Of a DNA stretch of 32,000 bases, positions 3,926 through 10,316 are shown piece after piece (positions within the stretch are counted from its first letter, which is position 1; each line of letters begins with the position of its first letter). Under the pieces are notes generated by a model, which was not told the DNA's origin, did not search any database, and saw nothing but the letters and a program-made list of their open reading frames with translations. The position numbers and the translations under genes are program-made. Origin of the DNA: Thermoproteaceae archaeon (GTDB taxonomy: Archaea; Thermoproteota; Thermoprotei; Thermoproteales; Thermoproteaceae); assembly GCA_015521775.1 (NCBI GenBank), contig WANN01000012.1:78980-110979 (forward strand). Reading direction: 5' to 3'.

Positions 3926-4597
3926 TCACGCAGTAGCCACCTCGTACCACTTAAGCCCGTCGACGCGCGCAATTATGCTCGACGCCAAAGCGTAGAACGT
4001 CTCGAGCCTGAGGGGCTTCTTCAGCTTTATGGTGAGCCTCCTCCTGCCGTGACGGGCCACCACGAACACCCTGTATCTGTCCTCCACGGTCCTCAAGCCT
4101 ATGACCACTACGCGTTCGGACCCGCCTATCCTGCTTATGATTCTGCGCCCCACCTCGTAGTCCCTTATGTACCTCCTCTTTATGCCGACCCTGTGCATGA
4201 GTATGTGGCCCCGGGGCAGCGGCACGTGGGGCCTGCGTCCCCTATAGCCTATGATAGTTATCCTCGTGGGCCTGGACATGTGCGACACGGCCGACATTAT
4301 GGAGGCGTAGTCCACTAGCCCCAGGATTTCAGAGATGGAGCCGACCGTCCTCTGCGCGTCCTCTATATGCACTATAATCCTACTACAGAGGGACAGCTCT
4401 TCCGCTACCAGGTCCTTGAACCTGCCCAGGAGGTCCTCCATGGAGGTGACGGGTATCTGGAGGAGCTGACCCCTGTCGTTCTCCACCTCTATGCCGGGCC
4501 CCCCAACCCTTATGTTCCTGTGCTGTACCCCGGAGGGGCTGTACCTCACTATGTCGATTTCCAGGTACTCAAGGGACATAAATACGCTGCATTCCAT
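3926..4597 (-). CDS. Hypothetical basic protein (223 aa), last gene of the Arcade operon
   Basis: The start of ORF 3926..4615 is TTG. ATG at 4597 (MECSVFMSLEYLEIDIV...) sits about 27 nt downstream of a ccttaaataatg box that overlaps the stop of the upstream gene. Codon usage looks coding. The C-terminal half is Arg-rich (GYRGRRPHVPLPRGH..GIKRRYIRD..ARHGRRRLTIKLKK). I recognise no family. Confidence 0.7.
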   Translation of the reverse strand: MECSVFMSLEYLEIDIVRYSPSGVQHRNIRVGGPGIEVENDRGQLLQIPVTSMEDLLGRFKDLVAEELSLCSRIIVHIEDAQRTVGSISEILGLVDYASIMSAVSHMSRPTRITIIGYRGRRPHVPLPRGHILMHRVGIKRRYIRDYEVGRRIISRIGGSERVVVIGLRTVEDRYRVFVVARHGRRRLTIKLKKPLRLETFYALASSIIARVDGLKWYEVATA

Positions 4598-4623
4598 TAC
4601 ACCGAACGTGCTCAATGCATTAT

Positions 4624-7080
4624 TTAAGGATAACCCAACTTAGGCGGTTCTAAGCCTTCCCGTATTATCTGCACCACCCTCGAGGGCGCGGAACGTGCCG
4701 CTTGGTCCACCAACTCGCGCGACTGGGTAGCCAGCACGACCTGCGCCACTATGTCACTCTCCAAGAGCCTCCGCAGGACCTCGACGAAGGTGCGCCTAAC
4801 CTTTTCGTCTACGTACGGTATCGGCTCGTCCATAAATAGGAACGCCACGTTGTGGCGGGCCGACTTGTATATGGCCAGGACAAGGGCTAGGGCTAGGGTC
4901 AGCCTCTGGCCGTCGCTCAACTTGGATATGGGGAGGCGCGCGGCGCCGCTGGAGAACGCGTACAGCTGGTAGTACACGGTGTCGTTGCGGGGCTCGGCCT
5001 CAAGGTATGCGCCCCTCAAATCGCCATAGGGGTAAAGCTGCGCGAACATGGAGTCCACGTGGTCCCTCAACACATCCACCACCCTGCGCCTCGCGTTGCC
5101 CTGCGCGGCCCTGAGGGCCCTTTGTATCCTCAAAAGCGCTGCGTGTAGGGCCTCGAGGCGCGCGGCCCTGTTCACTACGGCCCCTAGGTCCTCGTCGCCT
5201 ATATGTACAAGCACCGACATTATGGCCTCCCTCTCGGCCATTAGGGCCCTGAGGGCGTTTGTCTGCGCCTCCAACTTGCCGTCGATGCGGGACAGGTCCT
5301 CTTCTATCCTTGCCAGAACGCCCGGCGATGCCCCCACGTTTTCCAGCCTTTCCTCGTGCTCCCTCAGCTCCTCCTCAAGCTCCGAGATCCTCTGCCTGAC
5401 CCTGTAGGCCTCATAGGCCGCCTCGAGCTCCCCGAGCTCCCTTTCCGCCTGTTCCACCCATGTCCTTAACCTCCTAAGCTTACGCTCCAACTCCATGGCC
5501 GACCTCTCCGCCGTAGACAGCCTCCTCTTCAGCTCCGCGAGGGACCTCAGCTTCTCCTCTAGGACCTCGCGGTACCCTAGATACTCGCTTACGGCCGGCA
5601 TGACGCGCTCCAGCTCCCCCAATTCGTTCCTGGCCTCCTCCAGCATGCCCCTCTTCGACCTCAGCTCGTCGTCCAGCCGCATGTACGTGTCCACCAGCTC
5701 GTCGAAGCGTCTCCTCACGGACTCAGGGTCTACGCTGTTGCCGCATATGGGGCAGGCCTCGCCATGCGTCTCCACAAGGTGCCTAGCCACGACGTACAGA
5801 GACCTGGAAAGGAGCGTGCGGGACTCCAGCTCCGCCACTTCGCTGGACAGCCTCTCCACGGCGTCCTTAAGCCTAGATACGTCGCCCCACTTGCCCAGTA
5901 TCCTTCTGTAGGCCTCGTAGATGTGGGACATAGAGGAAACCTTGCTCTCGAGGGCGGCGACCTCCCTGCCGAGCGCCTCCAACTCGCCCGCCATCTCCAC
6001 ACGCCTCTCCCTTATGTCCTCAAGCTGCGCCTCCAATCTAGGCAGCACCGCTCCCTTTATGTCCCTTACAATCTTGTAAACTATGTCCAGGGTACTATCC
6101 ATGTGCTCGGGTTGGGCCAGCCGCAGCTCGTCCAGGGCTTTGCTGTCCAGGAACAGCCTCACCTCCTCAGCCACCTCGAGGACCTTGGCTCTAAGGGACT
6201 CTAGGCGAAGCGCCAGGTGTTCCAGCGTAGGAGCGGGGTGCCCCCCAAGCCTGTCCAGCCTGTCCCTGAGCTCGTCGTACTCCAACCTGGCACGGACGTA
6301 CTTTTCGTATGTTTCGGGGCTAGCCCTAATGGAGGCGACGGCCCTGGCCTTCTCCTCTAGGAGGCGCCTCCTCTCCGCCTCAAACGACTCGATGGACCTA
6401 CGTATACGTGACATCTCCCCCTCTATCTCTGCCAGGCGCCTCCTCATCCCGTCTATTCCGCCATACCGTTCAATCACGTCCCTACGGGCCTCTATGGCGG
6501 CAAGCCTATCCCTTTCACGCTGCAGCTTCTCAGTTATCGCGTCTATGGGCAAGCTCTTGAGGAGGCCCTCCACCGCGTCAATGCCGAACAGTCTGTCTAT
6601 CGCCAACGTGCGCCTTTGCCGGGGGCCGTGGAGGAGGGCCTCGAGGGAGCGGTGGGACACGTATATGGCCCTCTCGTAAAGGTCGTCGTCGATGCCCAGC
6701 AGCTCCTCGACGGCGGCTCTGAGCTCCCTCTCAGACCTTATGGCCCTCCCGTCCAAAGCCCCTTCTACCCTCTCGGCGCCGTTGCTTCTCAGTATCCGCC
6801 TAATGAGGAGCGTGGACCCATCCCCATTCGCCAGTTCCACCTCCACCACCGCGAGGTCCCTCCCCTCGGATATGAGGTCGGCGAGCCTCGCGACCCTTTC
6901 CTTGGTCTCCATGACCGAGCCGAAGAGCGCGTATTCTATGGCGTAGAAAATGCTCGTCTTGCCCGCGCCTATGCGCCCGTGCAGCAGCGTCATGCCTTGG
7001 CCAAACTCAAGCTCGTGTCTGCCCCTGTACGCCCTGAAGTTCTCCATGGCTACCCGCCTTATGGTCCACCTGGCCTTCAT
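4624..7080 (-). CDS. rkd-4: SMC/Rad50-like coiled-coil ATPase (arcadin-4-like)
   Basis: Walker A is GRIGAGKTS at residues 35-43. About 600 aa of Glu/Arg/Leu-rich coiled coil follow, with CPICG at residues 443-447. The signature motif is LSDGQR and Walker B is FLFMDEP near the C-terminus. The gene is co-oriented with and close to crenactin, and no Mre11/HerA/NurA lies nearby. Confidence 0.85.
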   Translation of the reverse strand: MKARWTIRRVAMENFRAYRGRHELEFGQGMTLLHGRIGAGKTSIFYAIEYALFGSVMETKERVARLADLISEGRDLAVVEVELANGDGSTLLIRRILRSNGAERVEGALDGRAIRSERELRAAVEELLGIDDDLYERAIYVSHRSLEALLHGPRQRRTLAIDRLFGIDAVEGLLKSLPIDAITEKLQRERDRLAAIEARRDVIERYGGIDGMRRRLAEIEGEMSRIRRSIESFEAERRRLLEEKARAVASIRASPETYEKYVRARLEYDELRDRLDRLGGHPAPTLEHLALRLESLRAKVLEVAEEVRLFLDSKALDELRLAQPEHMDSTLDIVYKIVRDIKGAVLPRLEAQLEDIRERRVEMAGELEALGREVAALESKVSSMSHIYEAYRRILGKWGDVSRLKDAVERLSSEVAELESRTLLSRSLYVVARHLVETHGEACPICGNSVDPESVRRRFDELVDTYMRLDDELRSKRGMLEEARNELGELERVMPAVSEYLGYREVLEEKLRSLAELKRRLSTAERSAMELERKLRRLRTWVEQAERELGELEAAYEAYRVRQRISELEEELREHEERLENVGASPGVLARIEEDLSRIDGKLEAQTNALRALMAEREAIMSVLVHIGDEDLGAVVNRAARLEALHAALLRIQRALRAAQGNARRRVVDVLRDHVDSMFAQLYPYGDLRGAYLEAEPRNDTVYYQLYAFSSGAARLPISKLSDGQRLTLALALVLAIYKSARHNVAFLFMDEPIPYVDEKVRRTFVEVLRRLLESDIVAQVVLATQSRELVDQAARSAPSRVVQIIREGLEPPKLGYP

Positions 7081-7220
7081 GCCTCGCGCAGCAGCTCCTC
7101 CACCACTTCCATTACGCCTCTCCTTCCCCTTTCCCTGTACGCCATATAAAGCCGCACCGCCAGCTCTGCGTCCTCCCCGTCCAGGGCCCTCCTTATCTCC
7201 TCCAGTATTATTTCGTCCAT
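7077..7220 (-). CDS. Unlisted 47-aa helical protein, translationally coupled on both sides
   Basis: Hand translation gives MDEIILEEIRRALDGEDAELAVRLYMAYRERGRRGVMEVVEELLREA. Its ATG (7220-7218) overlaps the TGA of the upstream gene (7222-7220). Its TGA (7079-7077) overlaps the ATG of the 818-aa gene (7080-7078), so both junctions read ATGA. Codon usage is typical of the genome (ATA, AGG). Confidence 0.55.
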   Translation of the reverse strand: MDEIILEEIRRALDGEDAELAVRLYMAYRERGRRGVMEVVEELLREA

Positions 7221-7828
7221 CATCTCTTCCTACTCCTCAACACCTTGACCCATTGATTCTCCTTTATAAATTGGGGAACCCCCTCCACAGACTCCGGCGT
7301 CTCGGCCTGGCCGGGGTTCGGGGCCTCACGCTGCTCCGAGGTTTCCCCGGGCCATCCCCTTAAGGTCTCGGAGACAAGCTCCGAGACAAGCCTCTTGACC
7401 TCCTCAAACATCCTCGCCCTTTCCCTCTCAAGAACGCTCAACACTTTGCGTTCCACGATCTCCTCAACGTTCGGCGCCTGCACGGCCACAGCTATGGGCG
7501 AGGCCTTGCCCGGGTACTTGAGCTCCACGTTGCCGTTACTGACCACGAGGAGGCCTAGGCCTGTCCTCTCCAGAAGGGACGGGTCTATAAACGGCAATGC
7601 GGATTCATGGACGGCCAAAATGACCCTGTTGTATCTTTCCCTTAGGGTAGAGGCCTCTGCCATGTACCTATTGACCTCCGCTTCCCCGTACATGTCGTCG
7701 ACAGCGATATAGACGGCCACCCTGTTCATGCCCTCGGCCATCTCCATTACATTGCCCGCGTGGGACAAGTACCTATACCCGTACTTGTCCTCGAGGGACC
7801 GCGCAATCAACGCTCTTATGTATTCCAC
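7220..7828 (-). CDS. rkd-2: Arcadin-2-like protein (about 200 aa)
   Basis: ORF 7220..8080 overlaps the crenactin 3' end, so the real start must be internal. GTG at 7828 lies 23 nt downstream of aaatattaatt, which begins at the crenactin stop. The alternative is ATG 7747. The architecture is a globular N-domain, a Pro/Glu/Gln linker, then a basic C-terminal peptide GVPQFIKENQWVKVLRSRKR. It sits immediately downstream of crenactin. Confidence 0.65.
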   Translation of the reverse strand: MEYIRALIARSLEDKYGYRYLSHAGNVMEMAEGMNRVAVYIAVDDMYGEAEVNRYMAEASTLRERYNRVILAVHESALPFIDPSLLERTGLGLLVVSNGNVELKYPGKASPIAVAVQAPNVEEIVERKVLSVLERERARMFEEVKRLVSELVSETLRGWPGETSEQREAPNPGQAETPESVEGVPQFIKENQWVKVLRSRKR

Positions 7829-7854
7829 AACTACATGTATTGCACAATTAATAT

Positions 7855-9485
<1,631 letters not shown>

Positions 9486-9525: not shown

Positions 9526-9807
9526 TTATGCCGATTCCAGTACTATTTCTATTGCGGCTACCGACCTGTCCCTGCCGCCCTGGCCAGTAACCCTATCACT
9601 GGTCAGCCTGACCTCCTTGACATTCACCTTGCCAGGCAGGAACCTGTCCCTAACCATTACCGCGGTTGTCACGGCCCTGGCGACTGCGGCTCCCCTTGCC
9701 TTCAGTATCACCCGCTTGCTGCCCTGGTTGAACTGCATTACCGTGGCTATTATGTAGTTTGTAGTCGGTTTCTTGCCGACCAGTATTGTTGCTTCTTGCG
9801 CTGCCAT
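9526..9807 (-). CDS. albA: Alba (Sac10b) DNA/RNA-binding chromatin protein
   Basis: MAAQEATILVGKKPTTNYIIATVMQFNQGSKRVILKARGAAVARAVTTAVMVRDRFLPGKV... is the canonical Alba pattern. The TATA box aatacttaaaaaggg lies about 26 nt upstream. Confidence 0.93.
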   Translation of the reverse strand: MAAQEATILVGKKPTTNYIIATVMQFNQGSKRVILKARGAAVARAVTTAVMVRDRFLPGKVNVKEVRLTSDRVTGQGGRDRSVAAIEIVLESA

Positions 9808-9989
9808 ACAGTGCGATATTTGTGCCCTTTTTAAGTATTACACAAGGGTAATATTAGGATTGCTCCACGTACATAATTCTTGGACCACCCTAATTATTAA
9901 ACCATAATTGACCGTAATGGAGTAACTATACACCATGCAAGTGACGTCCAGGTTCAGAAAGATATTTGTACTCTTCGCACCTAGATGCC

Positions 9990-10316
9990 ATGAGGGGGAT
10001 AGTCATCAGCAAGCAGATAGTGTATGACCCTCTGGGAACCCGGTACATCAAGGTAGAGATAGTCGAGGAGAGGGACGTGCCGAGCCCCATAATAATGTCG
10101 GACTCGCCGGAAGTGGCCAGCATAGCCCGCGAGGTGATGCCCCTAGTCACGCAGATAGTGAGGTCCATGCCGTTTACGGGACCCAACAGGATCACTGTGC
10201 CTCGCGTGACCCTGTGGCTCACGGACGAGGAAATGGAAAGTTTTGGGGACCTAGACGTGGGGGACTACGTGGAAATGGAGCTGGGAGGGGGAAGGCTCAC
10301 CCTAAAGAAGGCCTAG
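9990..10316 (+). CDS. Hypothetical protein (108 aa)
   Basis: The track start 9966 is TTG. ATG at 9990 lies 26 nt downstream of aaagatatttgta. Codon usage looks coding. The product [30 protein letters not shown]... matches no family I recognise. Confidence 0.6.

Follow-up and report, generated by a model that had tools for sequence, protein, structure and literature searches.

Arcadin-3 of a Thermoproteaceae archaeon, a small gene invariably adjacent to Rad50-related arcadin-4, is similar to the Rad50-binding tail domain of Mre11

The window analysed here (32,000 nucleotides (nt) of a Thermoproteaceae archaeon, GenBank assembly GCA_015521775.1, contig WANN01000012.1, positions 78,980 to 110,979) carries, all on the minus strand, the genes of crenactin, arcadin-2, arcadin-3 and arcadin-4 in that order, and this report concerns the smallest of them, the arcadin-3 (rkd-3) open reading frame (ORF) at 7077..7223. 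Crenactin (7855..9159, 434 amino acids (aa); NCBIfam NF053560, 671 bits with a cut-off of 630) defines the arcade cluster. Arcadin-2 (rkd-2, 7220..7831, start approximate; NF053561 Rkd2, E 4e-28) is 197-203 aa long in the gene calls of a sister metagenome-assembled genome (MAG), and arcadin-4 (rkd-4, 4624..7080, 818 aa; NF053563 Rkd4, E 2e-180; Pfam SMC_N and AAA_23) is a Rad50-derived SMC-like ATPase. The arcade cluster has been described as encoding arcadins 1 to 4, with arcadin-3 called only 'small', no function or relatives being stated, and arcadin-4 known just as related to Rad50 (Izore et al., PMC5173319); the name arcadin-3 goes back to Pyrobaculum calidifontis (Ettema et al. 2011, as cited in PMC5173319).

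The space separating the two large genes (7081-7219, 139 nt) is filled exactly by the small ORF, with an overlap at either end, as proposed in an initial annotation of this DNA. At 7223-7217 the minus-strand sequence is ATGATGG, which offers two start codons: the first ATG (7223-7221) gives 48 aa (MMDEII...REA) and overlaps the stop of the arcadin-2 open frame (7220..8080, TGA at 7222-7220) in an ATGA junction (7220..7223), and the second ATG (7220-7218) gives 47 aa and has one base in common with that stop. The ATGA junction at 7220..7223 is the same in the sister MAG and is not kept in other genera. At the other end, the stop codon (TGA, 7079-7077) overlaps the start codon of arcadin-4 (ATG, 7080-7078) in a second ATGA (7077..7080). 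Both features on which the annotation relied, an ATG sharing a base with the upstream TGA and a TGA overlapping the downstream ATG, can thus be read in the sequence, but its two ATGA overlaps hold for the 48-aa form and not for the 47-aa form. A TAG stop codon lies two codons upstream of the first ATG, and a hexamer resembling a Shine-Dalgarno sequence (GAGGAG, 7233..7238, minus strand), which may serve arcadin-3, lies 9 nt 5' of it. About 40 nt ahead of the arcadin-3 ATG, the 3' part of arcadin-2 contains a TATA-like sequence, TTTATAAA (7263-7270, minus strand), from which arcadin-3 and arcadin-4 might be transcribed internally, unless it does no more than encode F-I-K.

The ORF is almost certainly the arcadin-3 gene of the crenactin cluster. 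Its product matches the NCBIfam model NF053562 (Rkd3, 'arcadin-3') (E 2e-11, 43.7 bits, covering positions 2-46 of the 56 in the profile), has no match in Pfam, and together with 28 orthologues, drawn from seven genera of the order, makes up the 29-sequence arcadin-3 alignment used below. The exact 48-aa protein is present in NCBI, ENA and Logan gene calls, from which the 47-aa form is absent; together with the Rkd3 match this means that the gene, which the initial annotation had called unlisted, is neither unlisted nor new. The copy in the sister MAG is 96% identical and has the same layout, with arcadin-1 (PF18653) and Alba nearby, and was the only homologue recovered by a word-based search, the sensitivity of which is limited at 48 aa. 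The gene in itself is ordinary: a divergent, tail-less arcadin-3 orthologue of an uncultured hydrothermal-vent Thermoproteales archaeon. A 36-residue stretch in the beta-sandwich of a GH38 alpha-mannosidase in one genus is 47% identical to arcadin-3 residues 3-38; this and other weak single-sequence matches within the C-terminal beta-sandwich of such proteins (~1000 aa) were judged to be chance.

Arcadin-3 is a genuine protein-coding gene. The comparison set comprised 62 genomes of the order, 37 of them of high quality. Searches with the single sequence gave matches in 57 of the 62, and the 29-sequence profile found the gene in 59, among them all 37 high-quality genomes, in 9 genera. The three genomes without it are two that also lack arcadin-4 (54-73% complete) and one in which the 5' end of arcadin-4 falls at the end of a contig. 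A library-wide search with the profile returned about 30 small arcadin-3 clusters; long matches in that search were dismissed as Sel1/PPR-type repeat artefacts. Median ratios of nonsynonymous to synonymous substitution rates (dN/dS, pairwise Nei-Gojobori) are 0.03-0.2 in six genera, and AlphaFold2, given the arcadin-3 alignment, predicts a three-helix bundle (residues 2-13, 16-32 and 34-47) with a mean predicted local distance difference test score (pLDDT) of 96.5, so that three helices replace the two amphipathic helices previously envisaged. The possibility of a chance open frame in a spacer that is never translated might be entertained for an ORF so short, the more so as the public sequencing runs holding its sequence are DNA metagenomes only, but its probability is practically nil: the conservation across 9 genera and beyond the order and the low dN/dS have, as judged from sequence comparison, already refuted it, and the confident fold prediction and the existence of a curated NCBI family model also speak against it. 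The suggestion that so short an ORF, overlapping its neighbours at both ends, is more than chance was borne out, and the proposed check of frame conservation and synonymous pattern in relatives came out in its favour.

The conserved unit is arcadin-3 with arcadin-4, and only the coupling with arcadin-4 is fixed. In all 59 genomes with both genes, the two matches lie on one contig and one strand, -14 to +20 nt apart, and in 30 of 30 loci read base by base the distance between the arcadin-3 stop codon and the start of arcadin-4 is -28 to +5 nt. At the arcadin-2 side, the genes overlap in the genus of the window and two others, and are separated by a gap of 35-180 nt in four other genera, several of which place an A/T box some 30 nt ahead of the arcadin-3 start codon, which argues that arcadin-3 and arcadin-4 form a separate unit there. 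Thus the translational coupling that had been proposed at both ends stands on the arcadin-4 side, where the junction is tight throughout, but is lineage-specific on the arcadin-2 side. Outside the order, four more families of the class retain the gene order Alba, crenactin, arcadin-2, arcadin-3, arcadin-4. In one MAG (67% complete), an extra G in a run of G joins arcadin-2 and arcadin-3 in a single frame of 291 aa; the low completeness makes an assembly error likely, though it may be a natural fusion.

These junctions bear on whether arcadin-3 might serve crenactin or arcadin-2 as an adaptor or regulator, its coupling to arcadin-4 being mere operon packing. The location in the crenactin cluster, the overlap with the arcadin-2 stop codon in the lineage of the window, and immunostaining in P. 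calidifontis that reportedly places arcadin-3 among auxiliary proteins of division and cell shape (bioRxiv 10.1101/2022.04.06.487207, a secondary source on this point) are in keeping with such a role. The arcadin-2 junction, however, is not kept, with long gaps and separate A/T boxes in several genera, and the arcadin-4 junction is kept in 59 of 59 pairs. Complex prediction of crenactin with arcadin-3 gave an interaction prediction score from aligned errors (ipSAE) of 0.00, which lends no support to the link with crenactin that had been suggested, yet is not evidence against binding. Arcadin-2 has no profile similarity to Mre11 in alignment, and was ruled out on that ground as an Mre11 remnant. 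A crenactin or arcadin-2 adaptor is accordingly given only a slim chance.

A different partner is suggested by the profile matches of arcadin-3 outside the class. When the 29-sequence profile was searched against 401 genomes of the phylum, matches within the class were small ORFs, and matches in other classes lay inside frames of 320-505 aa. In 11 genomes from three families outside the class, the match falls on the last ~45 residues of Mre11, always at the extreme C-terminus, and the gene is directly upstream of rad50. The identity of these proteins as Mre11 is confirmed by matches to NF041031 (150-230 bits) and Metallophos in all eight frames scanned; three further frames, from one family, were outside that scan and are near-identical to a scanned one. 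One example has the motifs DVHLG, GDLFD, GDHD and GHEH, with a HerA-like gene before it and a Rad50-like gene after it at a 4-nt overlap. The Mre11-tail matches score 16-25 bits and the same proteins in reverse at most 1.3 bits, the noise level of the search being about E 1e-4 to 1e-3 per genome; matches to the C-termini of cysteinyl-tRNA synthetase (CysRS), to an enolase-family protein and to sulfite reductase were set aside as noise. The matched proteins are close to the Mre11 chain of 3AV0, the solved Mre11-Rad50 complex of Methanococcus jannaschii (E 1e-47), and the alignment extends into the C-terminal segment '...LvdYanrqGiDgDLvlsLYkAl' of that chain, to be compared with 'DSDLVLSLYKAY' in arcadin-3 of one genus. 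As a side observation, Mre11 (NF041031) is present in 54 of the order's 62 genomes; neither it nor a second Rad50-like gene besides arcadin-4 was found in either genome of the genus of the window (81% and 91% complete).

Profile-profile alignment with hhalign matched arcadin-3 to nine Mre11 tails with a probability of 96.2% (E 2e-9, 43 columns, consensus identity 49%), the motif DAELAV.(L/I)Y.AY being common to both, and against a full-length alignment of 39 Mre11 sequences the sole match was at columns 354-399 of 416. The decisive test of the link at the sequence level was the reverse search. A hidden Markov model (HMM) of the nine Mre11 tails ranked arcadin-3 first among the 25,690 six-frame ORFs of the genome (E 1.3e-6, the runner-up at E 3.5), and in the 62 genomes its 22 matches at E<=0.01, in six genera, were arcadin-3 without exception. 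A control profile built from CysRS gave 53 matches, 52 of them off arcadin-3 (nearly all in frames of CysRS length) and one, marginal, on it; judged from these profile searches, the likeness of CysRS to arcadin-3 is one-directional. The resemblance concerns helices 2-3 and the GIxV tail of arcadin-3, which recall the C-terminal anticodon-binding helix with its 'GIQVEDT' motif in CysRS genes of another class. AlphaFold2 predicts for the Mre11 tail a disordered linker followed by helices at 30-40, 45-61 and 63-78, which under the hhalign register correspond to the three helices of arcadin-3, both folds being predicted. With 48 aa, a TAG codon two codons upstream and an arcadin-2 lacking similarity to Mre11, arcadin-3 is not itself an Mre11 and resembles only the tail of that protein. 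[quoted passage not shown]

The neighbour of arcadin-3 is Rad50-like. The best solved relatives of arcadin-4 are the M. jannaschii Rad50 chains 5F3W, 3AUX and 3AV0, and arcadin-4 has been placed within Rad50 (Yoshinaga et al., PMC9389158). The Mre11 RBD binds the coiled coil of Rad50 (PMC10418313), its site being the head-proximal ends (PMC10418313; PMC6468247). Complex prediction of arcadin-4 (818 aa) with arcadin-3 gave ipSAE values of 0.58, 0.59 and 0.56, as against 0.00 in three controls, so that, of the partners proposed earlier for modelling, the 818-aa ATPase received a score graded 'weak support' (ipSAE 0.58) and crenactin no support. The predicted interface sets arcadin-4 residues 165-182 (codons at 6535..6588, minus strand, in the N-terminal strand of the coiled-coil base) and 641-667 (5080..5160, minus strand, in its C-terminal strand) against all three arcadin-3 helices, taking in L25, G33 and L45, which are invariant, and Y29, which is nearly so. 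The site at the coiled-coil base had been set down as the expectation, and the position of arcadin-3 in the place of mre11 beside rad50 noted, before the results. The idea of a partner of the SMC-like ATPase thus appears the most likely of the roles first proposed, in view of the 59 of 59 adjacencies, their recurrence in other orders, and the predicted scores of 0.58 versus 0.00; arcadin-3 probably clamps onto arcadin-4, as the models suggest.

Several results weigh against this reading. The Rkd3 score of 43.7 bits is below the curated NCBI equivalog cut-off of 90, a shortfall that fits the absence of the C-terminal ~10 positions and the divergence of the lineage; arcadin-2 (98 versus 290 bits) and arcadin-4 (601 versus 860 bits) also miss their curated cut-offs, crenactin being above its own, and the cut-off is a naming rule, not a biological criterion. 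The confinement of the arcadin-3 sequence of the window to DNA metagenomes among public runs belongs here as well. The complex scores lie in the range (ipSAE <=0.60) graded 'weak support' and may reflect memory of solved Mre11-Rad50 complexes, and conservation is not significantly higher at the predicted arcadin-4 interface than elsewhere in the coiled coil (0.49 versus 0.45, p 0.12). The Mre11 tails of the Thermoproteales themselves match arcadin-3 weakly (<=7 bits; hhalign probability 80.5% with 29 such tails). The CysRS C-terminus control reached an hhalign probability of 92.8% (E 4e-7) against arcadin-3, which indicates that hhalign is poorly calibrated here, and it is not relied on alone. 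With either AlphaFold2 model as query, Foldseek had no PDB match below E 1. At the sequence level, neither of the two profiles (arcadin-3 and Mre11 tail) nor a single arcadin-3 sequence retrieved an Mre11 chain from the PDB, 3AV0 being reached with the full-length Mre11 query only. The ESM Atlas gave no usable match.

Some of these points would be expected if arcadin-3 were a dedicated arcadin-4 subunit of independent origin, its likeness to the RBD being convergence on a helical motif that binds coiled coils, or chance: profile-profile scores are inflated for short helical profiles, as the CysRS control illustrates, the order's own Mre11 tails barely match, and Foldseek found no structural counterpart. 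Such an origin is nevertheless considered unlikely, given that the Mre11-tail profile finds arcadin-3 in 22 of 22 matches and the CysRS control only once, marginally, of 53, that a consensus identity of 49% extends over 43 columns, with DAELAV.(L/I)Y.AY in common, that the predicted helices are equal in number and length, and that both elements occupy the same place, with a 4-nt overlap, before a Rad50-family gene.

The reading preferred here with good confidence is therefore that arcadin-3 is a descendant of the Mre11 RBD and the binding partner of the Rad50-derived arcadin-4. An ancestral mre11-rad50 operon would have been duplicated, and the Mre11 copy would have lost its nuclease and capping domains until the RBD tail was left as arcadin-3; with arcadin-4 derived from Rad50, the pair would represent a duplicated mre11-rad50 operon without the nuclease. 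Translation of the three-helix, 48-aa protein may be coupled to that of the following arcadin-4 gene, which could help to set the 1:1 stoichiometry of the putative complex. If the arrangement follows that of Mre11-Rad50, arcadin-3 would fold its three helices around the antiparallel helix pair at the foot of the arcadin-4 coiled coil, beside the ATPase head (arcadin-4 residues ~165-182 and 641-667). The complex might stabilise or gate the ATPase, or might link arcadin-4 to arcade proteins via a C-terminal G-[IV]-x-[VL] motif and acidic tail, which the lineage of the window does without. The two proteins likely constitute a nuclease-less Mre11-Rad50 module, recruited to the crenactin cluster of Thermoproteales and related orders.

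Other genes flank this unit in the window. Upstream of crenactin lie an Alba gene (9526-9807, minus strand) and, beside it, arcadin-1 (9966-10316, plus strand; PF18653 in the gene calls of the sister MAG). Directly downstream of arcadin-4 is a gene for a protein of 223-229 aa (3926-4615, minus strand) that matches nothing in Pfam or NCBIfam and, by tblastn, nothing in the arcade loci of other orders.

The likeness of arcadin-3 to the Mre11 RBD appears to be a new point: no paper linking arcadins to Mre11 was found in the literature searched, which did not include the founding arcadin paper (Ettema et al. 2011), so that priority there is possible. If the reading is correct, arcadin-3 gains a ready binding partner and binding site, and the invariable coupling of its gene to arcadin-4 is explained. 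A DNA-repair machine stripped of its nuclease would have been reused beside an archaeal actin, and a Rad50-family ATPase described without an Mre11 partner may keep the anchor piece of Mre11.

Compared with the rest of its family, arcadin-3 of the window has the same place between arcadin-2 and arcadin-4 beside crenactin and the same small size, but shares only 38-64% identity with the aligned sequences from other genera. It also lacks, like its sister copy, the C-terminal G-[IV]-x-[VL] motif and acidic tail that are found in all other genera, both copies ending straight after helix 3 (the C-terminus of the window's copy being encoded at 7077-7100).

Kleisin ScpA and MukF are small subunits of SMC ATPases that bridge the head and the coiled-coil neck. 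Arcadin-3 may be likened to them as a small helical element at the head-proximal coiled coil, a functional resemblance only; Pfam gave no match for arcadin-3, and thus no sequence or profile similarity to these subunits was found, and at 48 aa it is far too short for bridging two heads.

The closest comparison is with the RBD of Mre11, as represented by M. jannaschii (3AV0). The two have in common reciprocal profile similarity with the motif D.(E/D)L(A/V)(V/L).LY.A(Y/L), three predicted helices of equal lengths, and a gene placed directly before, and overlapping, a Rad50-family gene; the (A/G)TGA overlap between arcadin-3 and arcadin-4 recurs between mre11 and rad50 in 6 of 10 loci from other classes. 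A seat on the coiled-coil base, where the RBD binds, is predicted for arcadin-3 with a score graded 'weak support'. Unlike the RBD, arcadin-3 is free-standing, with no nuclease domain, capping domain or linker, and its partner arcadin-4 belongs to a cytoskeleton cluster instead of the herA-mre11-rad50-nurA repair operon.

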